A stretch of DNA of 47,804 bases from Chthonomonadales bacterium (GTDB lineage Bacteria; Armatimonadota; Chthonomonadetes; Chthonomonadales; Chthonomonadaceae). Shown here one piece after another: positions 1 to 45,991 of the stretch (its first letter is position 1; each line of letters starts with the position of its first letter). A model generated the notes under the pieces. It did no database searches, had not been told where the DNA came from, and was given only the letters and a program-made list of their open reading frames with translations. Both the position numbers and the translations under genes were made by a program. The stretch spans positions 1-47,804 of the forward strand of contig JBBQPO010000013.1 in NCBI GenBank assembly GCA_038217285.1. The letters are read 5' to 3'.

Positions 1-944
1 ACGACTACATTTGCTACGGACGCCGCTTGCTCCTCCGTCTGCTGGCTTGCGCTCTTGCCCAGAAGTTCGGCATCGGCATTGTCAGCACGTAGGAGTTGCT
101 GCGAGTCCGTGGCTTGCGGCTTGTCAGGGGAGACGGTGCGCAGCAAGGTGTCGGGATGCTCGGGCGCTCGGCTTGCGCGCAGCATCTCTTCGGGGCCGTA
201 CCGTAATCGCTCGCGGATCTGCTCCACAGACTGAAGCGCTGCCTGTCGAAGCGCGGGATCGTCGGCCTTCCTGGCAAATCGTTTCAGCACAAGGATTGAA
301 GAAGAATCGCCAACCACGGCGAGGGCGCCAATCGCGGCAGGGCGGAGCTTGCGACGGAGAGTTTCGAAGGTCGGGGTACTTTTTCCACACACACCACCAG
401 TGCCCACGATCCAATAATCCCAGCCAGGCGGCATTACAAGCTCGTGGAGGCGTTTGCGTTGGAATTCTGTCAGAATCACTTCATCCTCCGCTCGGATCGA
501 TTGCAGCAGGGCACCAAGCAACGCAGCTACCGACTCAATCTCATCATCGTAGAGTACCACCGCCGCAGCTAGCGTCGCTTCGAGGAGGGGACCGATAGCG
601 GAGGGAGGAGCGATTTGCCGGGCATCACTGTGCCCAGGTACGAAGATGCCACGCAGTTCACCGAAGGCCTCGCGAAGACGCTTCTGTTCAGCTAGCATCC
701 ATATACACACTGCAAGGAAAGGGAGTAACAGCGGTAACAGAAACACAAGCAAAATACCGTCGATCGGTCGCTTTAGGAAGGCGTTCACCAACATGAGGAC
801 GAATGGTGAAGCGACGGACACGGCTATCCACGGTGGGCCGGTCCGCCTCATCCATCGAGCGGGAAGACGCAACGCATAGGCGCGCTCAGCCACACGGTTA
901 ATCGCATCGAGTTGCGGCGTAGACGCCATGTTCTGATCATTCAT
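1..944 (-). CDS. Membrane protein (2 TM + HEAT-like helical region + triple LLR tail), candidate Rhs immunity protein; 3' end runs off the window
   Basis: Translated by hand; absent from the ORF track because it has no stop in the window. ATG at 944 preceded by TAAGGAG; open frame to position 1 (MNDQNMASTPQL...WIAVSVASPFVLMLVNAFL...GILLVFLLPLLLPFLAVCIWML...AAIGALAVVGDSSSI...EEMLRAS...DTLLRTV...QQLLRAD). Directly downstream of the Rhs gene on the same strand. Confidence 0.85.
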   Translation of the reverse strand, partial: MNDQNMASTPQLDAINRVAERAYALRLPARWMRRTGPPWIAVSVASPFVLMLVNAFLKRPIDGILLVFLLPLLLPFLAVCIWMLAEQKRLREAFGELRGIFVPGHSDARQIAPPSAIGPLLEATLAAAVVLYDDEIESVAALLGALLQSIRAEDEVILTEFQRKRLHELVMPPGWDYWIVGTGGVCGKSTPTFETLRRKLRPAAIGALAVVGDSSSILVLKRFARKADDPALRQAALQSVEQIRERLRYGPEEMLRASRAPEHPDTLLRTVSPDKPQATDSQQLLRADNADAELLGKSASQQTEEQAASVANVV

Positions 945-967
945 ATTTCGGCACTCCTTAGGATTTC

Positions 968-1000
968 GTGCCGTCGACCAGATTCCCCAGTCGACGGCAC
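968..1000. repeat. Perfect 11-bp inverted repeat (stem-loop) between the Rhs gene and the downstream gene
   Basis: GTGCCGTCGAC (968-978) / GTCGACGGCAC (990-1000), 11-nt loop; no U-tract on either strand. Confidence 0.75.
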
Positions 1001-1018
1001 AACCTTCAGGCGATCATG

Positions 1019-4000
1019 CTACGGAACGAGCCTGTTGCACAATCCGCTAGCGAAGCCGCCCGCGATACTACCGATCCACCCCCCCCAGGGCCCAGGGATC
1101 GCACCACCGAGACACCCCGTGAGGCCACCCGTTGCAATCTGGCAGACGATATTCTCCGGGCTGGGCGGTGGGCAGGCCGCTGCGGAGCATGCTAAACCGA
1201 TGACCGCAGCGCCTATTCCACAGAGTATGCCCACGAAGCATCCCACCCCAGGGCCAGCCAACGCGACGATGGAACCGATCAGCCCACAGAGTGCCCCCGT
1301 GAAGCACCCCATGATAATGGAACAGAAACCGGCGAGGTTAAGTCCACCACCGCCGACCACATCGCCAACCAAGGCACCGACCATTCCAGCGAGACAGCCT
1401 AATCCCGCAGTTCCACCGGCGCTCCCGCCGCCACCTTTGCCGGGGCCGGTGTTGCCGCCAGCGCCGCCGTTACCCAGACCACCGTCATGAGGCCCTCCGT
1501 GCCTTTGAGGCCAATAGCCAGTCGGATCGGACATATCCAGCGGATCGTTGCTGACATAGCCATAGACGTTGACACCACCATCCGTATCCATAGGATCGCG
1601 GTTCAAGAAGCGTCCGGACGTGCTATCGTAGAACCGATGACCGAGCAGTTGCAGTCCCGTCTCCCAATCGGTGAAGTAACCCGTCGTGCCCCCGTAGCCG
1701 CTGTAGGGATCGCTCGTCGCCGTGGGATCGGAACTGTTGACCAGTCTTCCTCCGAAGCTGTCGAAGGCATACGAAGCCACCACGCTGCCCGAGGAGGCGT
1801 CTACCTGCTGGCTCACATTGCCCAAGGAGTCGGATGTGTAAAGCAGCGTTCGTGTCGCCGTGGTGCGCGCCAACACTCCTGACGGGCCAAACGTGGTCAC
1901 CGCCGTTTTTGTTCCTGAAGCGTTCACCTCCAAAACCGGACGATCCACATCGTAGATGAAGTAGGTCGTGCCGGATGCTGTTGTCTTGGAGGCGCGCAGT
2001 CCGTCGCCGCGATACCCAGATGTCATCGCCGTGCCGAAAGCGTTCAGGCGGTTCTCTGCGTCGAAGGTTGTCGTCGTTCCCTTGTAGGTTGTGGGATTGC
2101 CGGAGCCATCGTAGACATTCGCGCTGTTCTGGTTGTCGGCATTGAACGACTGCGCCGCGCCTCGGAAGGTCGTGGGGTTTTCGGCGGCATCATAGGCGCA
2201 GTTCAGAGTGTAACCGCTGCCGACCGTGCTGCTCTCGTGGGTCATCTCCGAGCGCGTATCCTGGGTGTAGTTGGTCGTGCCGCCGAGTGCGGACGCGGCG
2301 GGAAGGGAGCTGACGATCTGCGCAACGCTGCCGCCGGGAGTATATCCGTTTACCGTGTAGCTCGACAGAGTGCTTCCGCCACTTGTCGTTGTGTTCGCCA
2401 GACTGGTGAGGATTCCCCGCGCGTTGCGGGTGTAGTTGACGGTGACCCGGGTTGCGTCCATCTGCTGGCTTAGCCAGTCGTTGTTGAGGTAACTCCAGTT
2501 CCACGTCTGGCCGGAAGGGTTTTGCAGTGAAGTCAGCCGGGTTGCCGCATCGTAGCTATACCCAAAACTCGTGCCGTCCGGCAGGCGCATGGACTGGCAA
2601 CTTTCATCCGGATTGTAGGCATAGGTCAGGGTCTGAGCGGGCAAGCCGGTATAGGTCGTCGTGGCCGTGAGGAGCAGATCGTTGAAGTCGTAGCTCCACG
2701 CCTGCGAACCGCTGCCGTCAGATCTGGACTGTCGGCGTCCATAAGCATCGTAGGCGATATGCACGTTGATACCCGGAGTGGCGGGATACTGCAGGTCCGT
2801 CAGCTTATTCTCCGGATCGTCGTAGACGAAGTTGGTCACCACGCCGCGCCCATCGACGCGCTGAAGGGTATGCCCGAGGTTGTCAAAGGAGGTAAACGAA
2901 ACGATGTCATAGCCCGTGTTGACGTTGGCATTTGGGTAGGAGATCTTCCCAAGGTAGCCGCCCGTCGTATAGGCATACGTTGCCGCATGCGCATTTCCAT
3001 CGGCCATCGAGGTCATTCGGTAGAGAGCGTCGTACGTGGCGGTGAAGGGCTGGGTCGTTCCGGAGCGGGACAGAGTCTCGCCCTCGGGACCGAGGATGGT
3101 GAGAACCTGGAACACCAGGGTGCCCGCCTCGTTGGTCTGCGTCTCTTGCGATTGCGGGCCACCGACGTACTGGTAAGTGTAGCCCACCGTCGCGTGCCCT
3201 GCGCCGGTCATTCCAGTGGTAGGAAAGGTGATCGTGGTCATCTGGTCGGCCAGATTATGCGCGATGTCCATCTCGTTGCCCAATGCGTCGCTCTCGGCGC
3301 TCTTGTTTCCTCGGGCATCGAAGCGGAAGTGCGAGACGTGCCCCAACGGGTCGGTACGCGTCAGGGGCTGACGCAGAGCCGCCGCCTGGTTGTAATTATA
3401 CGCCGGGTCGCTGGTGTAGTTGAAGGTCGTGGTTTCTGTCGTCACGGCGTTGTTGCCGGGGCCGCTCTCCTGGGTCAGGTTGCCGAGGGCGTCGTAGAAG
3501 AAGTTGGCCGCGATCGTTGCCCCCGAGAGATCGCCCGGTTTGGCGCAGGTGATACTTTGCAGCAGGCCGGTGGGTTCGTAGTAGGTGAGCGTGACCGGTA
3601 TCTTCGCGCCGACTTGAATGCTCGTCACCTCGCCCAGCGCGAAGTTGGTGTAACTGATCGTGTTGGTCGTTACGGTGCCGCGCGCCGAAGTAGACGTCAG
3701 ACAGTTTCCGAACTGGTCCCAGGTCGCAGATGTCGTATTCCCGTTGGCGTTGGTCACCGACGAGGGACGATAGATGTTGTTGGGATCGGCAAAGGTTTTG
3801 GTGTACTGAACCACGCCGCTGCCATTGGTGGTACTGATGCCGTTCATGCCGGAATCGAAGCCAGCAGTGTAACTGTAGACCGTAGCGCCCTGGGGGTTTT
3901 TGACCGTGACGAGAGTGTGCGTCAGGTCGGTGGCGCTGTAGTTGCGGCTGTTGCCGTTGGCGTCCACTAACGACGTCACGTAGCAGGTGCCGTTGGTGGC

Positions 4001-6937
4001 GTAGTTGATCGTCGCCGTCGCATTACCCGCCCCGGTCGGCGAGGGAACGGTGATGGTGTGCAGGAACGGAACCTGCTCGGTGCCTTCGCCGTTATTTACC
4101 GCCTGATACCCATAGGCATAACGGTCGGGAGGGTTCAGTGCTCCGGTCGCCACGACCTGACTCACATGATCGAGTTCCTGCATCGACGTAGGATTGGGAG
4201 CGCCCACATTCACATTGGCATACGTGCCCACGTGATACGTGACGCTCCGACCGTAGCGGTCGTTGATCGCCGTCAGGTTGCCCGTGCCATCGCTTGCGCG
4301 GGTGAAGGTGAGCAGATTCTGCCCGCTCCTGTCCGTAATCGCCGAGAGCATGGGAAAATTGCCGCTGCCGGGGTTGCCGTACCAGAAGTTTATGGCGTTG
4401 CCGGTGCGGTCGATGATCTGGCCCAGAGAGTAGAGGATCGCGCTCGTTTGCCCGATGTTCGAACTGCCTCCCACGGCTTTACTCACCGTCGTCGTCACCA
4501 TCTGGGTGCGGTCTGCCATGGTGAGGACATAGTAGCCGCAGGTGTAACCGGGCGCATACTTCCACCTCACCAGCATGGGAAAGCCAGCGGGAAGCGTGCA
4601 GACGACCGAGGGATTCGCCGCCGTGGGAACCGAGGGCGCATTTATGGGAACTTGGGCTCCATTGGGTTCTATGAGGGTGCGGGTGCCAGGTTTGGGCAGA
4701 TAGCTGACGGCGTAGACTTGGAAGGGAGAGGACTGCGGATAGTAGTACTGGTAGCGCACCTCGTAGGTGCCCACAGGCGCAAGAGAAGGAGCCGTCACCT
4801 TAGCCGCCGAGGGAGAACTGAGGGTGACGCTCCAGTTATTGGGAGCGGTCGAGGTGGCAATCGTGGTTCCGTTTTGAACGATGTCCCAGGTCAGTCCGGC
4901 GGCTGGCACATCGGAGCCGGTGAAAGAGACGTCGCCCTGGCCTCCCTGTGGAACCTGCGGTGTGCTGGTGGCGGCATAGACGTCGAAGAAGCCGGACTGG
5001 AAATAGTTGTTGCTGCCGACCTGGGCGCGCATTTCATAACTGCTGCAAAGGGGGGCATTGGCGGGAATGCTCACGGTAAACTGATAGTAGCCGCTGACCG
5101 CCCATCCATTGGGGGAGGCGGAGGAGGCGATGGTGGTTCCGTTCTGGACGATGTCCCAGGTGAGCCCGCTGGCCGGGGCGTCCGTGCCAGTGGAGGGCAA
5201 CATATTGTTGGTGCTGCCTTGCAAAAAGTGCATATCGGCGCGGACGGTAGTATCATAGACGGCGTAGTTGTAGCTGTGCGACCAGCCGACCCCCATGTCG
5301 TCGGAGTTGTATTTCTCCCCTGAGGCACGCAGACTGTTGTAGATGCGACTCCAACTGACCGAGGGGCCGACCGGATTGTAGACTGTCAGATCGGTGCCCG
5401 GTCGGTACTCCTCTTCGCCTGTCGCCAGATTGACCGGATCGCCTGCAGAGGCTCCGCTAAAAGCGTCCGGAGTTACCGTGGTGGGAGGGGCTGTCGTGGG
5501 GCCACCACCATCAGTAGGTGGGGTCTTCTCGCAGGGACATGGATCGCCATCGGGTTTGTTACCGCACAGCAACAGCCGCGTTGGGGCGAGGTAGAGCAGT
5601 AGGTGGCCTGCCAGCCGAGCCGCCAGCCGAGCGGAGACGGCGGGGTTCTGCACGGACAGCGAAGCGAGCACGGTTCGAGGCGTATGGGTCGCCAGGGCGA
5701 GTTCAGCCGTTTTTGAAGCGGGGTGTAGCGCGAACTGCAGCGCCTGCGCCTCGGGGCTGTCGGGCAGGCAGACGGCCAGGTAAGGCCCAGCCTCCATGGC
5801 TTTCCACTGCTTCCAGGTCACCTTGCGCTCACCGCCAGGCCAGGCGCCGCAGTCCGAACAGAGGTAGGTCACTCCCTGCTTGTCCGCATGCGTGAGGGCG
5901 ATAAAGTGGTCGTGCTCCACGAAAGCCACCAGAGGCGAGTTGAGGGCTTGCAACGCCGTGGGATCGGCTTGGCAGGCGACGGTGGTAAGTTTGAGTTTGT
6001 TGGCGGCCTGGATAACGTCTGCGAGGCTGCTGCCTTCTCCCGTCACCCGGCAGAGAGGACGCACGGTCTTTTTGTCATAGGGCAGATGCAGTCCGCGCAG
6101 GCAGGCGGCGAGAGCTTCCACGCCGCAGAGAGGGTCCAAACGATTGGGTTCGGTGATGCCCATTTTGGAGCGCTCGGTGTGGTAGCCGGCGCAGGCAGAG
6201 GCATGGCGCTGGAAGAGAGCGGTCTCGCGACGTTCGATGCCGGGCAGGGGGGTGCGGGAGGTGAGCAGGGTATGCAGAACTTCCGCCGCCTGGGCGTAGC
6301 GTCCTGAGTAGAAGAGTCCAAACCCGATGTCGCGCCGGGCTGCAGCAACAACCGCCTCTGTGGACTGGGTGTCCGAAGGACGCTGTGCCTGATGACGCGT
6401 TCTGCGGTTCGTCTTGACGCTTGCCTGGGCGGCTAGATCGATGGCTGATTTGAAATGGGTGATAGCGTCGAGCGGCTCTTCATCTCTGGCCAGCCGGACT
6501 TCTCCGAGCCACAGATGCAGACGGGCCATTCGGAGGGAAGAGAGTTTCGCATTGGCATCCGTGTGCAGTTGCTTCTGCCATTGCCTCACCTGACCCGAGA
6601 GAAGACTGCCCTTGAGATGCCCAATGTCGTCGAGGAGCGAAAGACCAACGGCACCACGTCTGTTTTTGCCGACCAGCGCGATTTTATGCGCCTCGCCCGG
6701 TGAGAGGGGGCGAAGGTTTTCGCGCAAAGATTTCGGCGGCGAGATGCGTTTAAGATTCGGATGAAGAAGAGGCAGGGATGAGACAATCGGTTTAGCCGAT
6801 ACGGGGTGAGTCGTGGCCGTTTGGTGAGCCAGTACTTTTGCAGGCGTGGAAAGCACGAACGTTCCGGTAAAACTCAGGCTACAGAGTGCAGCAATGTGTC
6901 TCATCCATCTTGGGGTAGAGACGCGGTAAGCAGACAT
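1019..6937 (-). CDS. Rhs/YD-repeat polymorphic toxin-like protein: signal peptide, TPR-like helices, C39 peptidase-like domain, DUF6531-like start, YD repeats, Rhs core, Gly/Cys-rich C-terminal domain
   Basis: Start moved to ATG 6937 (AAGGAGG SD 6 nt upstream), about 1972 aa. N-terminal hydrophobic segment ending VLA; LCGVEALAACL and DHFIAL (C39-like Cys/His); GDPVNLATG; many YD-type repeats; core motifs RFYDSTSGRFLNRDP and YGYVSNDPLDMSDPTG. Confidence 0.93.
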   Translation of the reverse strand: MSAYRVSTPRWMRHIAALCSLSFTGTFVLSTPAKVLAHQTATTHPVSAKPIVSSLPLLHPNLKRISPPKSLRENLRPLSPGEAHKIALVGKNRRGAVGLSLLDDIGHLKGSLLSGQVRQWQKQLHTDANAKLSSLRMARLHLWLGEVRLARDEEPLDAITHFKSAIDLAAQASVKTNRRTRHQAQRPSDTQSTEAVVAAARRDIGFGLFYSGRYAQAAEVLHTLLTSRTPLPGIERRETALFQRHASACAGYHTERSKMGITEPNRLDPLCGVEALAACLRGLHLPYDKKTVRPLCRVTGEGSSLADVIQAANKLKLTTVACQADPTALQALNSPLVAFVEHDHFIALTHADKQGVTYLCSDCGAWPGGERKVTWKQWKAMEAGPYLAVCLPDSPEAQALQFALHPASKTAELALATHTPRTVLASLSVQNPAVSARLAARLAGHLLLYLAPTRLLLCGNKPDGDPCPCEKTPPTDGGGPTTAPPTTVTPDAFSGASAGDPVNLATGEEEYRPGTDLTVYNPVGPSVSWSRIYNSLRASGEKYNSDDMGVGWSHSYNYAVYDTTVRADMHFLQGSTNNMLPSTGTDAPASGLTWDIVQNGTTIASSASPNGWAVSGYYQFTVSIPANAPLCSSYEMRAQVGSNNYFQSGFFDVYAATSTPQVPQGGQGDVSFTGSDVPAAGLTWDIVQNGTTIATSTAPNNWSVTLSSPSAAKVTAPSLAPVGTYEVRYQYYYPQSSPFQVYAVSYLPKPGTRTLIEPNGAQVPINAPSVPTAANPSVVCTLPAGFPMLVRWKYAPGYTCGYYVLTMADRTQMVTTTVSKAVGGSSNIGQTSAILYSLGQIIDRTGNAINFWYGNPGSGNFPMLSAITDRSGQNLLTFTRASDGTGNLTAINDRYGRSVTYHVGTYANVNVGAPNPTSMQELDHVSQVVATGALNPPDRYAYGYQAVNNGEGTEQVPFLHTITVPSPTGAGNATATINYATNGTCYVTSLVDANGNSRNYSATDLTHTLVTVKNPQGATVYSYTAGFDSGMNGISTTNGSGVVQYTKTFADPNNIYRPSSVTNANGNTTSATWDQFGNCLTSTSARGTVTTNTISYTNFALGEVTSIQVGAKIPVTLTYYEPTGLLQSITCAKPGDLSGATIAANFFYDALGNLTQESGPGNNAVTTETTTFNYTSDPAYNYNQAAALRQPLTRTDPLGHVSHFRFDARGNKSAESDALGNEMDIAHNLADQMTTITFPTTGMTGAGHATVGYTYQYVGGPQSQETQTNEAGTLVFQVLTILGPEGETLSRSGTTQPFTATYDALYRMTSMADGNAHAATYAYTTGGYLGKISYPNANVNTGYDIVSFTSFDNLGHTLQRVDGRGVVTNFVYDDPENKLTDLQYPATPGINVHIAYDAYGRRQSRSDGSGSQAWSYDFNDLLLTATTTYTGLPAQTLTYAYNPDESCQSMRLPDGTSFGYSYDAATRLTSLQNPSGQTWNWSYLNNDWLSQQMDATRVTVNYTRNARGILTSLANTTTSGGSTLSSYTVNGYTPGGSVAQIVSSLPAASALGGTTNYTQDTRSEMTHESSTVGSGYTLNCAYDAAENPTTFRGAAQSFNADNQNSANVYDGSGNPTTYKGTTTTFDAENRLNAFGTAMTSGYRGDGLRASKTTASGTTYFIYDVDRPVLEVNASGTKTAVTTFGPSGVLARTTATRTLLYTSDSLGNVSQQVDASSGSVVASYAFDSFGGRLVNSSDPTATSDPYSGYGGTTGYFTDWETGLQLLGHRFYDSTSGRFLNRDPMDTDGGVNVYGYVSNDPLDMSDPTGYWPQRHGGPHDGGLGNGGAGGNTGPGKGGGGSAGGTAGLGCLAGMVGALVGDVVGGGGLNLAGFCSIIMGCFTGALCGLIGSIVALAGPGVGCFVGILCGIGAAVIGLACSAAACPPPSPENIVCQIATGGLTGCLGGAIPGPWGGWIGSIAGGFASGLCNRLVP
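4700..5230 (-). repeat. Intragenic tandem duplication (~90 aa unit) in the Rhs protein
   Basis: TGTDAPASGLTWDIVQNGTTIASSASPNGW and TGSDVPAAGLTWDIVQNGTTIATSTAPNNW; matching DNA (atgtcccagg at 4881-4890 and 5151-5160) offset by 270 nt. Boundaries approximate. Confidence 0.85.
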
Positions 6938-7088
6938 GAGAAACCTCCTTGATATCCTATGCGAAACAGCAAACATAAGATAAACAGCGCCCGTCACTTA
7001 TCGTGTATTCAGATTTTCAAACCCTCGCGATTATTTTGTCAGCACACTTTCAAACCAGTGACAAGTGCCGTACGTGTGTTACGAAAAT

Positions 7089-7117
7089 AGTATAGCAAAA
7101 AACAATTCTGCTGTCAA
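7089..7117 (-). promoter_or_regulatory. Sigma70-type promoter for the Rhs gene
   Basis: Minus strand TTGACA-17 nt-TATACT with extended -10 TG, in an AT-rich intergenic region ~150 nt upstream of the Rhs start. Confidence 0.75.
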
Positions 7118-7211
7118 GAAATATTTTGGAATGTCTGAAAATAATTTAGGCTATACATAAGAAGTAGTTATCCACGCATTCACATAGAGCAAATGAGCGT
7201 TCCAAAGAGCC

Positions 7212-7246
7212 TCGGGCGCACATTCCGCGTAGGAATGTGCGCCCGA
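7212..7246 (-). terminator. Hairpin downstream of pnp (probable terminator)
   Basis: Perfect 15-bp stem TCGGGCGCACATTCC / GGAATGTGCGCCCGA, 5-nt loop, ~30 nt after the pnp stop; only a weak U-tract (GGCTCTTT). Confidence 0.65.
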
Positions 7247-7278
7247 TAGGTTTGATCCGCTATGGGAGTCGGTCGCGA

Positions 7279-9591
7279 TTAGCGACGGGGACGGAAGCGG
7301 GCTTTGGGAGTCTCGTCCTCTTCCGGCTCGTCCGGCGCGGCCTGGGGAGCGGGAGCATCAGGGCGAGGCCCACGATCCCGGTCGCCGCCGCCGAAGCGGG
7401 GAGGCCCACCACGATCCCGACCGCCGCGATCTCCGCCACGGTCACCACCGCCACTGAAGCGAGGTGGACCGCCGCCACGACCGTCGTCGGGTCGCTTGGA
7501 CATGGAGGCGTCGAACGGCTGGTCGAGGTTGATCGCCGAGAGGTTGATACGACCCTGCTGATCTACTTCGATGACGCGCACCTTGATCTCATCGCCGACC
7601 TTGACCGCCTCTTCGGGGCGGCGCACCGGCGGGTTCTTGAGGTGGCTCACGTGAACCATTCCCTCTTTACCGGGCATGATCTCCACGAACGCGCCCATGC
7701 CGATGAGGCGGGTCACCTTGCCGGTGAATAGCGAGCCCACTTCGACATCGCCCACCATCCCGAGGATGATATCGGCGGCACGACGGCCTGCGGACTGATC
7801 GACTGCAGCGATGAAGATCTTGCCGTCCTGCTGAATGTCGATCTGCGCGCCGGTATCGGCGGTGATCTGCTTGATCGTCTTGCCGCCGGGGCCGATGATC
7901 AGGCCGATGCGCTCCGGATTGATCTCGATGCTGAAGATCGACGGCGCGAACTTGCTGAGCGTCTCACGCGGTTCGGCCAGCGCTTCCGCGATCTTGCCGA
8001 GGATATGGAGGCGGCCCACACGGGCCTGCTCCAGCGCCCGCACCATGACTTCGCGGGGCAGTCCCTGGATCTTGGTGTCCATCTGGATCGCCGTGATACC
8101 TTCGGTCGTTCCGGCCACCTTGAAGTCCATGTCTCCAGAGAAGTCTTCCATGCCCTGAATGTCGGTGAGGACGGCGTACTTATCGCCGATCGTCATCAGG
8201 CCCATGGCGATTCCGGCAACGGGCGCTTTGATCTTGACGCCCGCGTCCATCAGCGCCAGCGTGGAGCCGCAGACGGAGGCCATCGAGGTCGAGCCGTTGC
8301 TCTCCAGGACTTCGCTATGGAGCAGCATGGCGTAAGGGAAGTCCTCCAGCGGGGGCAGAACCGGGACCAGCGCACGCTGCGCCAGTGCGCCATGACCGAT
8401 TTCGCGCCGACCGGGGCCGCGCATCGGGCGCACTTCGCCGACCGAATAGGGCGGGAAGTTGTAGAAGTGCATATACTGCTGTCGCTGATCCATCTCCAGG
8501 TTGTCCACGACCTGCGCTTCGCTCATCGCGCCGAGGGTCAGGCAGGTGAGCACCTGGGTCTGTCCGCGGGTGAAGAGGCCGGTACCGTGTACACGGGGCA
8601 GCAGGCCGACTTCGCAGGTGATCTGGCGAATCTCGTCCAGTTTGCGGCCGTCGGGCCGAATGCTGTCCTCGATGATCAGGCTGCGGATCGCCTTCTTGAC
8701 GGCCTTGTCGGCGGCTTCGGGAATCTCGTGGGCGTTCTCGGGGAACTCCGGTTTGAAGCGAGCGACGATCTCACGCTTGAGGTCGTCGATCGCGCTCTCG
8801 CGGGCCGCTTTGTCGGGGTTCTGAATGGAAGCGCGGATCTCGGCGCCCATTTTGTCCTGGATCGCCTTCAGGATGTCGGCGTTCGGCAGGAACCTCGATA
8901 TCTCGCCTTTCGGCTTGCCGGCCAGCGCCTTCAACTCTTCCTGCAGTTCGCACTGTCCCTTGATGATCTCGTGGGCGGCGTCCATGGCGGCGAGCATGTC
9001 GGTTTCGGTCACGAAATCGCAGCCCGCTTCGACCATGATGATTGCCTTATGCGTACCGGCCACGACCAGATCAAGGTCGGACTCGCCGATCTGCTCCTGG
9101 GAGGGATTGATGATCAGTTCGCCATTGACGCGTCCGACGCGGACGGCTCCCACGGGGCCTTCCCACGGAATATCGGAGACACAGAGCGCGGCAGAGGCGG
9201 CGACGATGGCGAAGGTGTCGGAAAGGTTATCGAGGTCGAGCGAGAGGGGCATCGACATGACCTGCACGTCGTTGCGCATCCCCTCGGGGAAGAGTGGGCG
9301 CAGGGGCCGGTCGATGAGACGGGAGGTGAGCACGGCCTTTTCTGAGGGTCGGCCTCCGCGCTTCATAAAGCCGCCGGGAATCTTACCGACCGCGTACTTT
9401 CTCTCTTCGTAGTCGCAGGTCAGTGGAAAGAAATCGATGCCGGTGCGGGGTTCTCGGCTCATGGTAGCGGTCGCCATCACGACGGTATCGCCTACGGTAA
9501 GCCAGACGGCTCCTCCGGCCTGTTTCGCGATTTTGCCTGTTTCCAGACGCAAGGTCTTTCCAGCCAGTTCGCGTTCAACGGATTGTGACAA
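7279..9591 (-). CDS. pnp: Polyribonucleotide nucleotidyltransferase (PNPase)
   Basis: DFFPLTCDYEE, GKIPGGF, RREIGHGALA, SNGSTSMASVCG, GDMDFKVAGT; KH and S1 domains; TTG start with AGGAG SD; downstream of rpsO. Confidence 0.98.
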   Translation of the reverse strand: MSQSVERELAGKTLRLETGKIAKQAGGAVWLTVGDTVVMATATMSREPRTGIDFFPLTCDYEERKYAVGKIPGGFMKRGGRPSEKAVLTSRLIDRPLRPLFPEGMRNDVQVMSMPLSLDLDNLSDTFAIVAASAALCVSDIPWEGPVGAVRVGRVNGELIINPSQEQIGESDLDLVVAGTHKAIIMVEAGCDFVTETDMLAAMDAAHEIIKGQCELQEELKALAGKPKGEISRFLPNADILKAIQDKMGAEIRASIQNPDKAARESAIDDLKREIVARFKPEFPENAHEIPEAADKAVKKAIRSLIIEDSIRPDGRKLDEIRQITCEVGLLPRVHGTGLFTRGQTQVLTCLTLGAMSEAQVVDNLEMDQRQQYMHFYNFPPYSVGEVRPMRGPGRREIGHGALAQRALVPVLPPLEDFPYAMLLHSEVLESNGSTSMASVCGSTLALMDAGVKIKAPVAGIAMGLMTIGDKYAVLTDIQGMEDFSGDMDFKVAGTTEGITAIQMDTKIQGLPREVMVRALEQARVGRLHILGKIAEALAEPRETLSKFAPSIFSIEINPERIGLIIGPGGKTIKQITADTGAQIDIQQDGKIFIAAVDQSAGRRAADIILGMVGDVEVGSLFTGKVTRLIGMGAFVEIMPGKEGMVHVSHLKNPPVRRPEEAVKVGDEIKVRVIEVDQQGRINLSAINLDQPFDASMSKRPDDGRGGGPPRFSGGGDRGGDRGGRDRGGPPRFGGGDRDRGPRPDAPAPQAAPDEPEEDETPKARFRPRR

Positions 9592-16098: not shown

Positions 16099-17436
16099 TT
16101 AGCGCGGGGGGATGGGAGCGCCGAGGGCGCGTTGGAGTTGGGCGAGCGCGCGGCGATAGTCGCCGAGAGCGTTGTTGTAGTCGTTGCGGGCGGTGCGATA
16201 GGTCTGCTGCGCATCGATCACGTCGAGAATGGAGCTGGCTCCGAGCGCGTAGCCTTGCTGCACCTGATCGAGCAGGGTCTGGGTGCGCGGCAGGATACCG
16301 TCCTGGAACGAGGCGACCAGACGCTGCGACTGCGACAGCGCGATATAGGCTGTCTGCACCTCCAGGCGGATCTGCTGCTGGACCTGGACGATCTGCGCGT
16401 CCTGCACTTTCACATCCTCTTTCGCCTTGTTGACCGCGCCGCGAATGCTCCCGAAATCGAACAGCGGCAGCGCCACCGATACCTGCACCTGACTATCTCC
16501 CAACGTGCGCGGGTTCGCGCCCAGTTGCAGGTCGGGATAGTACTGCGAACGCTGCAGCTTCACATTCGCGTCGAGAGCGCGACGGCTCGCTTCCGCCGAA
16601 CGCAGTTCCGGCCGGGAGTGCAGCGCGAGTGCCTGGAGGTCTTCCAGCTTCAGCGTGAGCGGCGTAAAGGCGAGAGGATCGGCGGCGTTGATCGGCAGCT
16701 CCGGACTGCGGCCAAGCTGCACGTTCAGAGCGGCGCGGGCCTGCTGAACCGCGCTGACGGCCCTGAAGAAATTCTGCTCCTCCTGCGTGAGCGCGATTCG
16801 CGTTCGCGTGGCATTGGAGGCGGGCGCGTCTCCGAGATCGACCCGTTTGGTGATCAGATCGTAGAGGCGCTTGGCCGTGTCGTAGGCCTCCTGCTCCGTT
16901 CGCAGGTTGCTGTTGGCGGCCTGCAGATCGGCGTAAGCACTCGCCGTGCCCTGCTGCACCGCCAGGCGCGTGGTGACGGCGTCAGCCTGGACTCCCTGCA
17001 ACTGCGCGCGCGCCTGCCCGGTGCGCCAGCGCTGCCGGCCGCTCGTCTCCAACGTATAGATGACACCGTATCTCGTGGGGTCCGAGGGATCGAGGCCGGA
17101 AGGCGTGTTCGTTATACCCGTAACGAAGAGGTTTGGATTGACGGGCTGTTTCTGCCCGGAGAGGTTGGCCTGCGCTCCTGCCACCTGATGCGTGGAGGCG
17201 ACCAACTGCGGACTGTTTGTTGCGGCGATGCGCAACGCCTGCTCCAGCGTCAGTCGCTGTGCAGGCGGAACGTCCGGCGGCAGGTCCGGCATCGGCAGCG
17301 TCTGATCTTGCGTCGGTCGCGTCTGAACCTGTCCTGCTGCCGAGCGGCCCTCGATCCCCATCACGACCAGCAGACCGAGCGCCGCAAAAACTTTTCTATT
17401 CGAAAGGGATCGTCCCTTAAAACGCGTAAAACTCAC
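16099..17436 (-). CDS. TolC/CzcC-family outer membrane efflux protein
   Basis: LTLEQALRIAATNSPQL, RPELRSAEA, VALPLFDFG, YALGASSILDVIDAQ. GTG 17436 has a GGGGAG SD; the ORF extends to 17556. Confidence 0.9.
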   Translation of the reverse strand: MSFTRFKGRSLSNRKVFAALGLLVVMGIEGRSAAGQVQTRPTQDQTLPMPDLPPDVPPAQRLTLEQALRIAATNSPQLVASTHQVAGAQANLSGQKQPVNPNLFVTGITNTPSGLDPSDPTRYGVIYTLETSGRQRWRTGQARAQLQGVQADAVTTRLAVQQGTASAYADLQAANSNLRTEQEAYDTAKRLYDLITKRVDLGDAPASNATRTRIALTQEEQNFFRAVSAVQQARAALNVQLGRSPELPINAADPLAFTPLTLKLEDLQALALHSRPELRSAEASRRALDANVKLQRSQYYPDLQLGANPRTLGDSQVQVSVALPLFDFGSIRGAVNKAKEDVKVQDAQIVQVQQQIRLEVQTAYIALSQSQRLVASFQDGILPRTQTLLDQVQQGYALGASSILDVIDAQQTYRTARNDYNNALGDYRRALAQLQRALGAPIPPR

Positions 17437-17490
17437 TTTGATTTCACTCCCCCGGTTCCTATTCCCTGGTACAGCCGAACGCGCCCCTGT

Positions 17491-17547
17491 ATAGTATCCC
17501 TCGTCTGCCTTAAACCTGACTTCACGTTGCCTGAGAGTTTTCTCAAG
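17491..17547 (-). promoter_or_regulatory. Possible internal promoter for the TolC gene with 11-bp-periodic OmpR-type half-sites
   Basis: Minus strand CTTGAG-N5-TCTCAG-N5-GTGAAG-N5-TTTAAG, then 12 nt and a -10-like TACTAT. Confidence 0.35.
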
Positions 17548-17552
17548 CGCCG

Positions 17553-18488
17553 TCAAAACAGCTTCCCTGGAAAGAAGGAGCCCGAGAGCAACACTTGAAC
17601 CGTCGCGGCGTCACCGTGCAACTGCCACTGCACCGCCGCACTGTAGACTTCGTAGCGGTGCTGCGCGAAGGCAAACCCGTGCATCGTCGTGACTCGGTAC
17701 TGCTGCCCCTGGATCGGCGCGAAGTAGACCAGTTCATTGGAATACTGCCAGCGTCCGCCCCGGATCGGCGTCGTGGTCGAAGCGGCGAGCAGCACCTGAT
17801 AGTCCACTCCCGGCACACCCGACCGGGTCAGCGATGAGAGGCCGATGTTGAAGTCGCCATGAAACTGCCATTTCGTGAAGTCCCGGCTTGCGAGCAGCAG
17901 GGCGCCCACGTCGAATTTCTGTGTGCCGCCCAGTTCGCGGCGTCCGGTCGGGATTTTGGTGTTGATTCTGCCGGCGATGTCGAACCCGGCCTTCTCCTGC
18001 GGCTTATAGAGGTACTGAAGGGCGAAATAGGTGTCTCCGACCCCGTCTGTATGGTCGCCCTGACGAATGTAGCCGTCGGTGGCGAGGCGATACTGCAAGC
18101 GACGATTGCCCGCCGTCAGCTTGAGCAGAGAAGGCGTCCCGAAGCTGCGGTCGCGGTTCAGGTTCTTGAAGCCTGTTATATCGGCCTCGATCCAGCCGGG
18201 AGCGGAGAGCGTCGCGGTATCGGTGATGCTCGGCGCGCTCGGCGTCACCGAGGGCGGATGATTGTCCGGCTCCTGCTTGCCATCGCCAGCTTTGCCGTCG
18301 GCCTGCTTCGGGTCGGTCGTTTTGCCATCGCCCTGCTTCACGTCGGCTGGTTTCGCGCCCGCCCGGCCCGCGATCATTCCGCCGAGCAGCACAACCACCC
18401 ACACTGCCGGCCCTCCTGGGCACGTTCGCACCGCTCTCCAGCCACCGGATCTATGCCTGCCCACACGCACACTCCTTCTGTTATCCAC
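17553..18488 (-). CDS. Putative outer-membrane beta-barrel protein (transporter/MetA-pathway-like)
   Basis: Signal-like hydrophobic segment, low-complexity linker, then PSITDTATL..PGWIE, GVGDTYFALQY, KIPTG and alternating beta-strand pattern; overlaps the upstream stop. Confidence 0.6.
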   Translation of the reverse strand: MDNRRSVRVGRHRSGGWRAVRTCPGGPAVWVVVLLGGMIAGRAGAKPADVKQGDGKTTDPKQADGKAGDGKQEPDNHPPSVTPSAPSITDTATLSAPGWIEADITGFKNLNRDRSFGTPSLLKLTAGNRRLQYRLATDGYIRQGDHTDGVGDTYFALQYLYKPQEKAGFDIAGRINTKIPTGRRELGGTQKFDVGALLLASRDFTKWQFHGDFNIGLSSLTRSGVPGVDYQVLLAASTTTPIRGGRWQYSNELVYFAPIQGQQYRVTTMHGFAFAQHRYEVYSAAVQWQLHGDAATVQVLLSGSFFPGKLF

Positions 18489-19278
18489 CCTTAGAAGTAA
18501 GGCGCTCGATCGCGGCCTTCTCTTTCTCGGCCCGACGGGTATCGCCCAGACCCGTCAGAGCCTCCAAATACTTCTTATGCCCCTCGACGAGTCCCGGCAC
18601 AAAAACGATGACGCGGCGGTAGTAGTCGGCCGCCCGCCGGAAGTCCTTCGCCTTCATCGCGACATCCCCCAGGCCGATCAGCGCGTCGTCGTCCGTGTTG
18701 TCGTAATGCAGCGCGGTCTCCCAATACTTCTGCGCGTCGGTCTCTTTTCCCTGTATCATCGCGATTCTGCCCAGGGCACAGTACGCGTGTCCCTGTTTGC
18801 TGTCGAGTTTGAGGGCCAGGAGAGCCTCTTTCTGCGCCTCGTCCAATCGGTTTCGCTCGACCAGCTCCTCGGCATAGGTGGTATGAATGTCCGGATTTTT
18901 CGTATCGTGCTTTACCTGATCCTCCAGCGCCTGAAACGCCTTCTCCTCCTGGCCCTTGTTGGACCTCTCCCGGGCGGTATGGATCAGGCGTTCGGCCTCT
19001 GCCGAGTGGGGCCGCAGACGGAGCGCTGCTAGAAACTCATCGACGGCCTTCTCCTCTTTGCCCGTCTGCAGATAGACTGTGCCCAGACCGATATGGGCAT
19101 CCGCGCCATCCTGATTCCACTCCAGTGCGGTACGGAAATGATAGGCGGCGGTGCTGAGCCGGTTGGCCCTGAGACTGGCCTGACCCTGATAGAGCTGCGC
19201 AGTATAGCCCTGCGAGCTGCGCTGGGCGGAGCCGACCACGGGCAGCAGACAGAGAAGACACACCATTTTTTTCCACAT
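18481..19278 (-). CDS. Exported tetratricopeptide repeat protein
   Basis: Signal peptide MWKKMVCLLCLLPVVGSA; several TPR motifs (AHIGLGTVYL, AYCALGRIAM, ALIGLGDVAM). Confidence 0.88.
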   Translation of the reverse strand: MWKKMVCLLCLLPVVGSAQRSSQGYTAQLYQGQASLRANRLSTAAYHFRTALEWNQDGADAHIGLGTVYLQTGKEEKAVDEFLAALRLRPHSAEAERLIHTARERSNKGQEEKAFQALEDQVKHDTKNPDIHTTYAEELVERNRLDEAQKEALLALKLDSKQGHAYCALGRIAMIQGKETDAQKYWETALHYDNTDDDALIGLGDVAMKAKDFRRAADYYRRVIVFVPGLVEGHKKYLEALTGLGDTRRAEKEKAAIERLTSKGG

Positions 19279-19291
19279 AGCACACCTCGCT

Positions 19292-22200
19292 TTAAGAAAG
19301 GGTCACCGGTTCAGGTTGGGTTCCATGTGCCGGAACCGGACGGGCGACCAGAGCGTAGAGAACGGGCAGGACGAAGAGCGTCAGGATCGTCGCGGAGATA
19401 AGCCCCCCGATGATGACGATGGCAAGCGGCTTCTGCGTGTCCGAGCCGATGCCGGTCGAGATCGCGGCGGGCACCAGGCCGATACTCGCCAGGATCGCGG
19501 TCATCAGGACAGGGCGCAGGCGTATCACGCCGCCTTCGATCACCGCCTCCTGCAGCCCTGCCCCCTGTGCCCGCAGATGATCGAAGTAAGAGACCATAAT
19601 GACGCCGTTCTGCACCGCGACTCCGAAGAGCGCGATGAAGCCGACGGCGGCGGCGACGCTCAGATGGAAGTGCGTCAGATAGAGCGCGAACACGCCCCCG
19701 ATGAGCGCCAGCGGCACGTTCAGCATCACGATCGCGGCGCGGGAGACCGTGTTGAAGAGCATGAACAGGACCAGGAAAATCAGAAGCAGGGTGATCGGGA
19801 CGATGATCATCAGCCGCGCGCCCGCCCGCTGCATGCTCTCGAACTCGCCGCCCCAGACGGTGTAGTAGCCGCTCGGCAGGGTGACGGCATCTTTCACCTT
19901 GCGCTGCGCCTCCAGCACCGCGCCGCCGATGTCGCGGCCGCGCACGCCGAACTTGATGGCGATGAAGCGGTGATTCGCCTCCCGGTAGATAAAGGCCGCG
20001 CCGCGCTCAGTGCGAATGTCGGCGAGCTGGGCCAGCGGAATGCGCTGCCCGTCCAGAGTGCTGACGGTAATCTCGCGTATCTGCTCGACATCCCGACGGT
20101 TCTCCGGCGTCAGGCGCGCGACGATGGAGAATTTCTTCTCGCCGTCCAGCAACTGCGTAATGGTTTTGCCGCCTATGGCCGTCTCCACCACATCCTGCAC
20201 ATCCTGCACGTTCAGGCCATAACGGGCGATCTTATCCCTATCCACATGGAGCTGTACCTGCGGTTCACCCGTCTCTTTGAACGTGTCCAGATCGACCACA
20301 CCGGAAATGCCCGCCAGTGTGCGCTGGATCTCGTCGGCCTTCTTCTCCAGAGTGTCGAGGTCGTCTCCGAACAGTTTCACGGCCAGCTCGCCTTTGATTC
20401 CGGTGACCGCTTCCTCAACGTTGTCTTCGATGTTTTGCGAGAAGTTGAACGAGACGCCGGGGATCTGCGCCAGCTCCGCGTTCATCTTCTCGACAAGGGC
20501 GGCCTTGGTCGAATAACCGTGCCAGGCATCGTAAGGTTTGAGGTCCACCAGAAACTCGGCGTTGTAGAAGCCCGTTGCATCCGTGCCATCGTCGGGCCGC
20601 CCCATCTGCGAAACGATGAGCCCGACCGGCTGATACTTCGCCAGTATCTCCCGGACCCTGGGCACGATCTGCGCCGCCTCGGTATAGGAGATGGTCGTCG
20701 GCATCGTCGCGCGAATCCACAGATTGCCCTCGTCGAGATGCGGCAGAAACTCCGTGCCGAGACGAGGCATGACGAAGAGAGAGAGCACGAACAGCCCGAC
20801 AGCGGCGACGAGTGTAGGCATCGGATTCGCCAGCGCCCAGCGCAGCGCCCCCCGATAGCTGCTCTTTAGTTTCAGACTGACGACGTTCTCGCTGTCTTTC
20901 AGTTTCCCGCGCAGCAGCAGGTAGCAGAGCACCGGTGCAACGAGCAGCGCCATTATCAGGGAGCCGATCAAGGCGAAGCCGATGGTGTAGGCCATCGGAG
21001 AGAACATCTTCTTTTCGACGCTCTGCATGGTGAACAGCGGCAGATAGGCCAGAATGATGATGACGGTGGTAAAAACGATTTCAGTCTGGACCTCGCCGAT
21101 CGCCTCCAGAATGCAGGCATGGATGCTCTCCGCTGCGGCGCGGCGCGCGAGGCGCCTATAGACGTTCTCGACCAGAATCACCGCGCCGTTGACGATGATA
21201 CCGAAGTCGATCGCGCCCAGCGAAAGCAGGTTCGCCGGAACATGAATGAGACCCATGCAGGCGAAGGCAAACAGCAGCCCGAACGGGATGGTCAAGGCCA
21301 CGATGATGGCGGCACGCACGTTACCGAGAAAGAGAAACAGTATCGCGACGACGAGCAGAATGCCCTCGATCAGGTTATGCTCTACCGTATGCGTCGTGGT
21401 TTGAACCAGGTTCGAGCGGTCCACGAACGTCTTGATCTGCACACCCTTCGGCAGGATACTGGTGTTGAGCTGCTCGATCTTTTTGTGGATCGCTTCCAGG
21501 ACCGGAGCCGGGTTCTCCCCGCGCCGCAGCAGGATGATGCCCATCACGGCGTCGTCGGTATCCGTCTGCGGTCCGCCGCCGCCGGGCCGCCATCCGACCT
21601 TTCCCAGGCGCGGCTTAAACCCGATTCGCACCGTCGCCACATCACGGACCAACAGCGGAGCGCCGTTGCGCGTGACGACGACCACATTTTCGATATCCTT
21701 CTCGTCCCGCAGAAGCCCAACGCCGCGGATCACATACTCCTCGCTGCCCCGCTCGATGTAGTTGCCGCCCGCGTTGGCATTGGCGCCCGCGATCGCATCG
21801 GTGACGCTTTTCAGGGTCACATCGTAGGCTTTGAGCCGCGCAGGATCAATCTGAACCTGAACCTGTTTGACCGTGCCGCCGAAACTGTTGACATCGGCGA
21901 CGCCGGGAATGCTCTTGAACTCGCGTTCCAGTGTCCAGTCCTCGATAGTCCGAAGGTCCATAAGCGGCTTGCCGACGACGGTATAGCGATAGATCTCCCC
22001 GGTGGCGCTGGCGAGCGGGGAGAGTGCAGGCTGCACTCCCGCAGGCAGGTCGGCGGCGGCGACACGCTCCATCACCTGCTGGCGGGCGAAATAGTCGTCG
22101 ATGCCGTCCTCGAAGACAAGGTAGACAACGGAGAGGCCGAACAGGGAACGACTGCGCAGACTGGAGACGTGCGGCACCCCGTTCAGGCTGGTCTCCAGCG

Positions 22201-22402: not shown

Positions 22403-22447
22403 GATATTTCCGAAAACCAGGTTAGAAGCAAGGGGTTGGCGCCCCCG

Positions 22448-26306: not shown

Positions 26307-26527
26307 ACCTTCTACTTCCGCAGAGGCAACGCCTTTCCCTGTCGGCATACAGGAAAACAGCAGCGATCCGTTGTACTTCGGCTATTTCACGGGCTGCGTT
26401 CGTCACCGGCGGTGACGACATCACCGCCTCCGAGGAGGAAGACCCTGGTCTAACGGCGAACGGGGATTGATATTCTGAAGTTCCCAATGCAACGTTGCAG
26501 TCACGGTGTGAGGAGGAGAAATCGACT

Positions 26528-43520: not shown

Positions 43521-43522
43521 CC

Positions 43523-45985: not shown

Positions 45986-45991
45986 GAGAAG

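Follow-up and report, generated by a model that had tools for sequence, protein, structure and literature searches.

A Polymorphic Rhs Toxin Locus of Armatimonadota with a C39 Peptidase Module in the N-Terminal Part of the Toxin

The window analyzed here is a stretch of 47,804 nt at the start of contig JBBQPO010000013.1 (contig C13) of a Chthonomonadales bacterium, a soil-type member of the phylum Armatimonadota whose genome comprises 6.2 Mb in 459 contigs and is 95% complete. On its minus strand lies a large rhs gene followed by a smaller gene for a predicted membrane protein (table 1). The rhs open reading frame (ORF; window 1019..6997, minus strand) has 1992 aa when counted from a GTG; the ATG at 6937, which the public gene call P0003 also uses, is the likely start and gives 1,972 aa. 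Residue numbers below follow the 1992-aa GTG form, from which 20 is subtracted for the ATG form. The product is built, in order, of a Sec-type signal, a variable linker, helices resembling tetratricopeptide repeats (TPR), a C39 peptidase domain, a Cys-containing linker, a DUF6531 domain, a duplicated domain, RHS repeats, an Rhs-associated core, and a C-terminal tail. A first-pass annotation, made from the sequence alone, had described a protein of about 1972 aa with this order of domains and with the motifs GDPVNLATG and DPLDMSDPTG, a description that ORF, Pfam, and NCBIfam analyses confirm in almost all points. The locus is a polymorphic Rhs toxin locus and not a bacteriocin hybrid, and the fusion of an N-terminal C39 peptidase module to an Rhs protein is, within the literature searched, an undescribed architectural class, yet one that is common in Armatimonadota and not unique to the window.

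Table 1. Features of the rhs locus, in window positions (AF2, AlphaFold2; TM, transmembrane).
Feature	Position	Strand	Evidence
Sigma-70-like promoter match, TTGACA-17 nt-TG-TATACT	7089..7117	-	11/12 consensus positions, TG before -10
Shine-Dalgarno AAGGAGG, 7 nt ahead of ATG 6937	6944..6950	-	Read from sequence
rhs gene, 1,972 aa + stop	1019..6937	-	ORF, Pfam, NCBIfam, gene call
Sec-type signal peptide, residues 1-37 in ATG numbering; opens Arg-rich, with hydrophobic core, then VLA and HQ	6827..6937	-	Read by eye from translation
Conserved helical TPR-like module, from conserved SLLDD/TLLDEVG segment	6164..6640	-	Weak Pfam, alignment, AF2, Foldseek
C39 cysteine peptidase domain; Cys codon 6125-6127, His 5906-5908, Asp 5852-5854	5723..6163	-	Pfam, triad, fold
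Low-confidence linker with conserved Cys pair, ending in G-P/A-S-x-G junction	5444..5722	-	Alignment, AF2
DUF6531 N-terminal plug (GDPVNLATGEEEY)	5252..5443	-	Pfam
Two tandem copies of ~90-aa domain	4670..5230	-	Self-comparison
RHS/YD repeat shell	1685..4669	-	Pfam, NCBIfam
Rhs-associated core, two Asp 23 residues apart (aa 1801, 1824), DPTG	1517..1684	-	NCBIfam, motif
165-aa predicted cargo: Gly-rich linker + five TM-length helices, conserved Cys	1022..1516	-	Composition, alignment, AF2
Perfect 11-bp inverted repeat, 11-nt loop, no T run, between rhs and downstream gene	968..1000	-	Sequence reading
Candidate immunity gene, 2-TM hairpin (690-836) + HEAT-like domain	3..944	-	ORF, Pfam, homologs

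Several lines of evidence identify the C39 domain and suggest, from sequence and model alike, that it looks catalytically active. First, Peptidase_C39 (PF03412) matches residues 291-376 with 35.7 bits against a Pfam cut-off of 22, and with 38.1 bits when the N-terminal piece is scanned alone; NCBIfam TIGR03796 and TIGR01193 give partial, low-scoring matches over the peptidase part only. Second, the AF2 model that covers the N-terminal 498 aa (alignment of 30 rows; predicted local distance difference test, pLDDT, 76.4; predicted TM-score, pTM, 0.66) consists of a helical repeat part and an alpha/beta domain, and the best PDB matches found by Foldseek are LahT150 (6mpz) and the ComA peptidase domains (3k8u, 5xe8), with PCAT1 lower. 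The five best rows have E values of 4e-4 to 8e-4, TM-scores of 0.73-0.76 on the target, and root mean square deviations of 2.2-4.0 Å (2.2-2.4 Å against 6mpz and 3k8u), so that the C39-like domain of the first-pass annotation has the fold of the double-glycine peptidases. In the sequence alignment with 6mpz, Cys291 falls on the Cys of that enzyme and HFIAL on its HFVVL. Third, the catalytic triad is kept in an alignment of the N-termini of 109 fused relatives (Cys in 102, His in 102, Asp in 100 with Glu in another 8), and the same holds for the separately encoded peptidases described below, which is the pattern expected under selection for catalysis. Further conserved Cys residues of the fused family stand at 269, 380, 383, 478, and 487.

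The helices ahead of the peptidase had been called TPR-like. The helical-repeat model bears this out in shape, whereas the Pfam matches to TPR families are weak (E 0.009-0.06), and TPR proteins rank below the C39 peptidases in the Foldseek list, with E values of about 0.04-0.2. A TLLDEVG-x-L segment, modeled with a pLDDT of 87-94, opens the module, and a G-P-S-x-G junction stands just ahead of DPVNLATGEEEY, with Gly at position -1 in 82 and at position -5 in 75 of the 109 relatives. Either the TLLDEVG segment or the junction could be a site cut in cis or a bound pseudo-substrate. The AF2 model shows isolated beta-bridges at model residues 102/108 and 299-304 and renders the signal-peptide region as a single long helix.

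The remainder of the protein is that of an Rhs toxin. DUF6531 (PF20148) matches residues 519-582 with 35.4 bits, beginning at the GDPVNLATG motif (residue 519); in PMC10684867 this domain is described as the plug of the Rhs shell. The duplicated domain that the first-pass annotation had noticed behind the plug is real, its copies being 51% identical over 80 aa (E 2e-20), and it is absent from the close relatives P0004 and P0030. RHS_repeat (PF05593) matches the shell with an E value of 1e-19, TIGR01643 matches it as well, and Rhs_assc_core (TIGR03696) covers residues 1772-1827 with 56.2 bits in NCBIfam. DPLDMSDPTG begins at residue 1818 and the tail follows directly. Pfam finds no PAAR domain in the protein, and a Pfam scan of the 48 larger ORFs of the window returned no PAAR, VgrG, type VI secretion system (T6SS), or ATP-binding cassette (ABC) exporter family, which agrees with the earlier reading that T6SS genes are missing from the window; no ABC transporter gene lies beside rhs among the window ORFs scanned.

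A search with residues 1-520 returned 109 cluster representatives of 1,291-3,369 aa, and PF03412 is listed in all but two of them, together with RHS and mostly DUF6531. Few relatives are named; these come from Chthonomonadaceae, Capsulimonas, and metagenome-assembled genomes (MAGs) of Fimbriimonadales, and the nearest named homologs are from Chthonomonadaceae and Chthonomonadales MAGs. The architecture thus recurs across genomes with differing tails, so the C-termini are not invariant: beyond the Rhs core they vary in length, charge, and hydrophobicity, and other tail families among the relatives include PF15523, PF15524, PF15650, PF15657, PF15542, and PF14220, or PT-HINT modules. In an even sample of Armatimonadota genomes the fused module is present in 40 of 401, from 7 families (E <= 1e-20), and at the same threshold it was not found in the three other genomes of the window's own genus. 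A scan of one genome per species gave 60 related loci, of which 56 belong to Armatimonadota lineages and 4 are labeled only "bacterium". This patchy presence, the several copies per genome, and the variable tails resemble the behavior of polymorphic toxin genes. In the long relatives (2,300-3,400 aa), fn3, PKD, and Ig-like domains come first, and C39 is again found some 200 aa ahead of DUF6531; the module is accordingly tied to the plug side of the shell and not to the N-terminus as such. No accessory or secretion gene recurs beside the fused rhs genes, the largest non-Rhs cluster being found in 5 of 60 loci. Our literature search, which did not cover the supplements of PMC3482391 and their possible lists of architectures, yielded no account of Rhs proteins that carry a C39 module at their N-terminus. 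The first-pass annotation had rated the locus a candidate for an undescribed system; what is undescribed is the architecture, and this is common in the phylum.

The same genome holds further pieces of this kind. Contig C169 encodes a paralog of the helical and C39 part (67% identity, 433-aa frame), C334 a segment 91% identical to residues 515-905 of the rhs protein, C356 a 1,652-aa Rhs protein (37%), C58 a remnant of an Rhs core, and C179 another Rhs piece; a fragment of a second separately encoded C39 protein (83%) is found on C332. The assembly probably breaks at these Rhs repeats.

The second body of evidence comes from loci in which peptidase and Rhs protein are separate gene products. On contig C37 of the host genome such a pair lies at 118-1995 (locus L008, minus strand). 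Its first gene (1201-1995) encodes a C39 protein of 264 aa that has an LSGC lipobox and scores 73 bits in Pfam. Directly downstream on the same strand is a DUF6531/RHS gene with a Sec signal; its ORF ends after 263 aa near the contig end, and its product carries a double-glycine-type leader behind the signal peptide. With the C39 protein of this split form as query, matches are found in 84 of 401 Armatimonadota genomes, the weaker ones being fused forms. We surveyed the 30 best loci with a standalone C39 gene. A short C39 ORF is present in all 30, and in 25 the downstream ORF falls within the stored 1.5-kb flank. This neighbor is a DUF6531 and/or RHS protein in 22 of the 25; the three unmatched ORFs have 112-155 aa, and for two of them the locus ends before the ORF does. 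In 18 of the 25 downstream proteins the signal peptide is followed, after a few residues, by the pattern R-x-L-[TS]-P-x-E-M-x-x-I-x-G-[AGS], which corresponds to the double-glycine leader consensus LSxxELxxIxGG. As background, this same loose pattern turns up within the first 220 aa in 195 of the 53,460 six-frame ORFs that the host genome contains (0.36%). A profile of the leader has a single match in the host genome, the C37 Rhs gene (E 5e-6), which shows specificity only, since that sequence is itself part of the profile. All three catalytic residues (Cys, His, and Asp) are present in each of 26 split C39 proteins, and 23 of the 26 also have the Cys of the lipobox column. In nine neighborhoods of 10-20 kb the only recurring genes are those for C39 (9/9) and Rhs (8/9, with one cut by the contig end), and no third conserved gene was found beside the pairs in these neighborhoods. 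We found no literature description of a C39 lipoprotein paired with a leader-tagged Rhs protein.

The tail that follows the Rhs cleavage motif contains 50 Gly, 19 Ala, and 11 Cys in 165 aa, and the hydrophobic cargo that the first-pass annotation had placed there is indeed present. It had also been called bacteriocin-like, which rested on composition: the cargo has neither a double-glycine leader nor a match to a bacteriocin family. Nor did other searches link it to a described family. Pfam gave a best E value of 0.92, a profile search of PDB sequences gave 0 matches at E <= 10, the best ESM Atlas value (0.78) is below the lead level, and Foldseek against PDB returned nothing at E <= 1e-3 for the model of the tail, the weak rows being unrelated membrane proteins. 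Against 1.84 billion representatives there were only 6 weak matches (E 2.8e-6 to 5.4e-4), three of which begin within an Rhs repeat/core region and three of which are short proteins with no part other than this domain; the full-length relative P0030 also carries it. An alignment of 8 sequences has 9 invariant Cys and 2 invariant Gly at fixed spacing, which indicates that the tail is a domain and not mere low complexity. The AF2 model from these 8 rows (pLDDT 67, core 75-84) predicts disorder in the Gly-rich linker and five helices, each of 20-24 residues, in which small-xxx-small motifs are frequent. As judged from sequence, the tail is a new domain family.

The gene downstream of rhs starts with an ATG 74 nt past the rhs stop, behind AAGGAG, and its 3' end is cut by the contig start, so that 314 aa are visible. 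The protein consists of a short N-terminal part, a hairpin of two hydrophobic segments (residues ~37-57 and 63-85), as the first-pass annotation had reported for a 2-TM gene at this place, and a domain of about 230 aa with a weak HEAT_2 match (E 7.6e-4). Its 24 database relatives have 158-491 aa, mostly 270-364. On contig C49 of the host genome (26977-27270, minus strand; locus L010) lies a remnant of a paralog that corresponds to the C-terminal third (71% identity, 128-aa frame) and adjoins a large gene on the opposite strand. The remnant ends 9 aa past the last residue aligned to the downstream protein, which together with the lengths of the relatives suggests that little of the downstream gene is missing.

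The downstream gene is likely an immunity gene, as the first-pass annotation had proposed, and support comes from its linkage to the tail in other genomes. When 67 other genomes of the order were searched with a profile of the tail, 6 of them yielded 13 further places, and 12 tail-matching ORFs lie in the regions fetched from other genomes (L101 and L105 repeat L050 and L051 and were not recounted). The six best cassettes (E 1.5e-45 to 1e-18; L052, L047 twice, L048, L051, L050), which come from four other genomes, all have a gene of the downstream family behind them on the same strand; stop and start mostly overlap, and one pair is separated by a gap of 667 nt. Five of the six linked genes are found with the downstream protein P0002 alone (E 4.5e-9 to 9e-4), and the sixth by a profile that does not contain its sequence (E 1.6e-41). 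All of them share the 2-TM and HEAT-like build and a C-terminal LL[RH]...P...LLR motif. Behind the six weaker tail matches stand genes for other predicted membrane proteins, of which one matches the family weakly (2e-5). A complex prediction of the downstream protein with the tail gave a median of 0.29 against a mark of 0.32 and counts neither for nor against the pairing. Two loci, L047 (G231:C61 1-14000) and L049 (G344:C224), hold arrays of 3-4 short cassettes of Rhs core plus tail, with a membrane-protein gene after every cassette; the arrays resemble orphan toxin/immunity cassettes that trail a main rhs gene.

How these parts would work together may be outlined as follows. The Rhs precursor would be exported by Sec, the RHS shell would close around the C-terminal cargo, and the aspartyl protease of the Rhs core, whose motif is conserved, would free the cargo at DPTG. 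The helical and C39 unit would be the fused (cis) version of the two-gene arrangement that is common in the phylum, and its peptidase would serve as a periplasmic maturation or release enzyme for the N-terminal part of the Rhs protein, whichever cargo the protein carries. By analogy with Tse5 (see below), the glycine-zipper-like, Cys-rich cargo of five predicted helices would be expected to insert into the cytoplasmic membrane of a competitor and depolarize it, and conserved linkage suggests that the downstream 2-TM/HEAT-like protein would act as the cognate immunity protein in the membrane of the producer.

The first-pass annotation had offered two substrates for the C39 domain, the cargo and the N-terminus of the protein, within a hybrid of a polymorphic toxin and a bacteriocin system. 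The hybrid falls with the bacteriocin features that the cargo lacks. A cut by C39 at the Gly-rich start of the cargo was considered and rejected: the module is kept with many unrelated cargos, and a domain that is conserved while the cargo varies is no cargo-specific maturase. From the split form, in which a C39 lipoprotein stands beside a leader-bearing Rhs protein, it follows that C39 most likely matures the Rhs N-terminus in the periplasm. Because the two components occur both fused and as a conserved gene pair, and because the substrate bears a matching recognition tag, the most economical reading is that C39 and the N-terminal part of Rhs proteins are functionally linked. Support for N-terminal maturation comes from the leader of the split-form Rhs neighbors; the fused family does not share this leader at a level above shuffled sequences. 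T6SS Rhs proteins are cut N-terminally at the plug without a C39 domain, as in Tse5, for which a cleavage-site mutant K47G-P48A is described (PMC10684867); the C39 step may accordingly be an additional one, for example release from a tether or stalk. Taken as a whole, a two-gene toxin/immunity module in which the C39 domain matures the N-terminal part of its own Rhs protein is the account that we favor on balance, if only slightly. More tentatively still, and with less confidence than in the module itself, we propose that Rhs toxins of Armatimonadota may be matured and released by a route without a described parallel among polymorphic toxins, namely Sec export and then a periplasmic cut by a dedicated C39 peptidase at a double-glycine-type leader behind the signal peptide, in trans (lipoprotein plus Rhs) and in cis (the fusion in the window).

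Several observations weigh against this account. The leader profile identified no substrate site in the fused protein, and across the 109 fused N-termini its best score was 0.4 bits, compared with 3.3 bits in 545 shuffled controls. (A faint look-alike of the leader, LRPLSPGEAHKIALVG, which the window protein shares with the relatives P0004 and P0005, was rejected for its noise-level score.) The downstream gene is incomplete and the family of the tail is small. The one-per-species scan used two family-specific peptide patterns and is therefore silent on distant versions outside Armatimonadota. Two matches to the Hcp family (PF05638) above the cut-off, at C177 891-1259 and C23 11446-11760, leave a small probability of a contractile system; VipA, VipB, and PAAR were not found in the host genome, which is 95% complete. 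Lastly, among the 19 best loci of the downstream family elsewhere (one per genome), none has an Rhs core or tail in its 1.5-kb flanks, and the family is thus not exclusive to this toxin.

This last point feeds the alternative that has to be taken most seriously, namely that the downstream gene is not an immunity gene but a nearby member of a large lineage-specific family of membrane proteins, with the true immunity gene elsewhere or absent. The closest full-length homologs (two relatives, 48-49% identity) likewise do not adjoin Rhs genes, and the family occurs in several copies per genome and in many tandem arrays. We nevertheless consider this alternative rather unlikely, given that a family member stands behind each of the six close tail cassettes, often with overlapping stop and start, and that the gene in the window has a strong Shine-Dalgarno sequence of its own so close behind the rhs stop. 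Orphan and arrayed immunity genes are, moreover, usual for polymorphic toxins. The arrays, at L014, L018, L022, L024, L026, L030, and L032, comprise 2-3 paralogs of the downstream family with no Rhs in the 1.5-kb flanks; they may be polyimmunity-like, or the family may have another role.

A different view of the peptidase is that the C39 domain is itself an effector, that is, a second, nonpolymorphic toxin or an enzyme that cuts the envelope of the target cell, for instance so that the shell can get to the membrane. C39-type toxin domains are known: Tox-PLC39 is listed solely as a C-terminal toxin domain of polymorphic toxins (PMC3482391), and StbD-CT cuts GyrB/ParE at Gly-Gly (10.64898/2026.05.07.723447). 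Like these, the window protein contains a C39 peptidase within a polymorphic toxin, and the lack of a leader-like site in the fused family would fit such a role. In Tox-PLC39 and StbD-CT, however, the peptidase is the variable C-terminal toxin with an immunity protein of its own, whereas the domain described here is conserved, N-terminal, outside the shell and ahead of the plug, has no second immunity-like gene beside it, and belongs to a protein whose toxin lies elsewhere. Furthermore, the split peptidase is a lipoprotein of the producer whose Rhs neighbor has a matching leader, which argues for self-processing. We therefore regard an effector role as distinctly improbable.

We give very little credence to the idea that C39 is a noncatalytic docking or chaperone module similar to the C39-like domains of RTX transporters, which would do no more than attach the Rhs protein to a partner or hold a part of its own chain. 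Inactive C39-like domains do exist, 3zua and 3b79 are among the structural matches, and the conserved TLLDEVG segment is confidently modeled as part of the module; against this stands the retention of the triad in nearly all fused and all split proteins. It is equally hard to credit that the hydrophobic tail is a membrane anchor of the Rhs protein in the producer envelope, as its five TM-length helices and its lack of an enzymatic motif or known toxin family might suggest, for it is placed after an intact Rhs autoproteolysis motif at a position that is polymorphic among relatives, and the same domain recurs in short cassettes behind Rhs-core remnants, each with a membrane-protein gene, the hallmark of toxin/immunity pairs.

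Rhs toxins are known as cargo of T6SS, type VII secretion systems (T7SS), or Tc-type systems, or as wall-bound WapA proteins. In WapA-type Rhs/YD toxins of Gram-positive bacteria, a signal peptide takes the place of a T6SS or T7SS adaptor, the C-terminus behind the RHS shell is polymorphic, and an immunity gene lies downstream; they also have wall-binding repeats and are not known to have a peptidase module. The window protein resembles WapA in its signal peptide, its shell, its variable C-terminal part, and the candidate immunity gene behind it. Unlike the organisms that carry WapA, the host has outer-membrane machinery, as indicated by three secretins in the genome and an OEP/TolC-type gene in the window, and its Rhs protein has a peptidase module. 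The closest parallel for the cargo is Tse5 (RhsP1) of Pseudomonas aeruginosa, an Rhs protein that encloses a hydrophobic C-terminal domain forming ion-selective pores (PMC10684867; PMC11630599). Both proteins have a DUF6531 plug, an RHS shell, and an Asp pair of the core at the same 23-residue spacing (D1141/D1164 in Tse5; PMC10684867), and both have a hydrophobic cargo, which in Tse5 is thought to enter the inner membrane of the target and is paired with the cognate tsi5 (PMC10684867; PMC11630599). Tse5, on the other hand, is a T6SS effector, whereas the window protein has a Sec signal and a TPR-like and C39 module, and its cargo has conserved Cys and no relative detected among known families, in searches that included no direct comparison with the Tse5 C-terminal sequence.

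The peptidase domain invites comparison with the C39 domains of peptidase-containing ABC transporters (PCAT) and ABC-transporter maturation and secretion (AMS) proteins, such as ComA, LahT, and PCAT1. Fold and aligned catalytic Cys and His are shared, and the split-form Rhs partners have the classic double-glycine-type leader (LSxxELxxIxGG). In contrast to PCAT/AMS, the C39 domain is not joined to an ABC transporter, and it is fused to or encoded beside an Rhs protein of 1,000-2,000 aa instead of a small peptide; its placement behind a Sec signal implies that it acts outside the cytoplasm. The only precedent that we found, within the literature available, for a Sec-exported, periplasmic, and catalytically required C39 peptidase is FapD of the Pseudomonas Fap amyloid export system, which is needed for secretion across the outer membrane and whose target is unclear (PMC5557850). 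FapD shares with the proteins described here a C39 peptidase behind a Sec signal and a periplasmic placement, which for the latter is predicted. The Fap system differs in that its peptidase is encoded with a FapF-type pore and amyloid subunits; such genes were not seen next to the Rhs genes, where no third gene is conserved in 60 fused and 9 split loci, although no search aimed at FapF was made.

The link between C39 and the leader concerns the maturation and release of Rhs proteins that diderm bacteria export by Sec. An intact C39 peptidase tied to Rhs both as a fusion and as a neighbor, with a leader on the substrate, makes a directly testable enzyme/substrate hypothesis, one that is also relevant to substrate recognition by FapD and other periplasmic C39 peptidases. 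If it is true, the split pairs would be the first clear enzyme/substrate pairs for an uncharacterized class of periplasmic C39 peptidases that includes FapD, and the helical and C39 unit would be a new trafficking and processing module on a par with the PAAR, LXG, and TPS domains. In addition, the locus contributes a new Cys-rich, putatively membrane-acting toxin domain and a new candidate immunity family of 2-TM/HEAT-like proteins.

The expression signals of rhs are less certain than its coding sequence. The first-pass annotation had credited the gene with a strong promoter of its own, and a match to 11 of 12 consensus positions with a TG extension is found 150-180 nt upstream of the ATG at 6937. 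The region 1-7400 has 4 promoter-like sites, against 2.0 +/- 1.5 in shuffled sequences, and the site at 7117-7089 is hence a consensus match only. Upstream of rhs on the same strand are the housekeeping genes rpsO and pnp, and a GC-rich inverted repeat without a T run (GGGCGCACATTCC ... GGAATGTGCGCCC; 7213-7243, minus strand) can be read just past the pnp stop and before the rhs promoter match.

Other genes were noted elsewhere in the window. The segment 10258-14640 (plus strand) encodes two glycosyltransferases of family 2 and, after them, an O-antigen ligase-like (Wzy_C) protein of 776 aa that has TPR repeats at its C-terminus. A resistance-nodulation-division (RND) efflux operon at 16099-24067 and 24205-26348 (minus strand) encodes an HlyD-type adaptor, an AcrB-type pump, a TPR protein, an unassigned ORF of 311 aa, and an OEP outer-membrane factor, and adjoins a LytTR response regulator and a His_kinase-type sensor. 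The 470-aa ORF at 38062-39474 (minus strand) is a LacI-family regulator with an extra N-terminal HTH_23/transposase-like helix-turn-helix ahead of its LacI DNA-binding domain and an uncertain start codon. Finally, 39679-47335 (plus strand) holds two tandem pairs of PSD/PSCyt proteins (DUF1592/1588/1587/1585/1595), each followed by a DUF1552 (HXXSHH) protein, a gene pair that is typical of Planctomycetes-type genomes.

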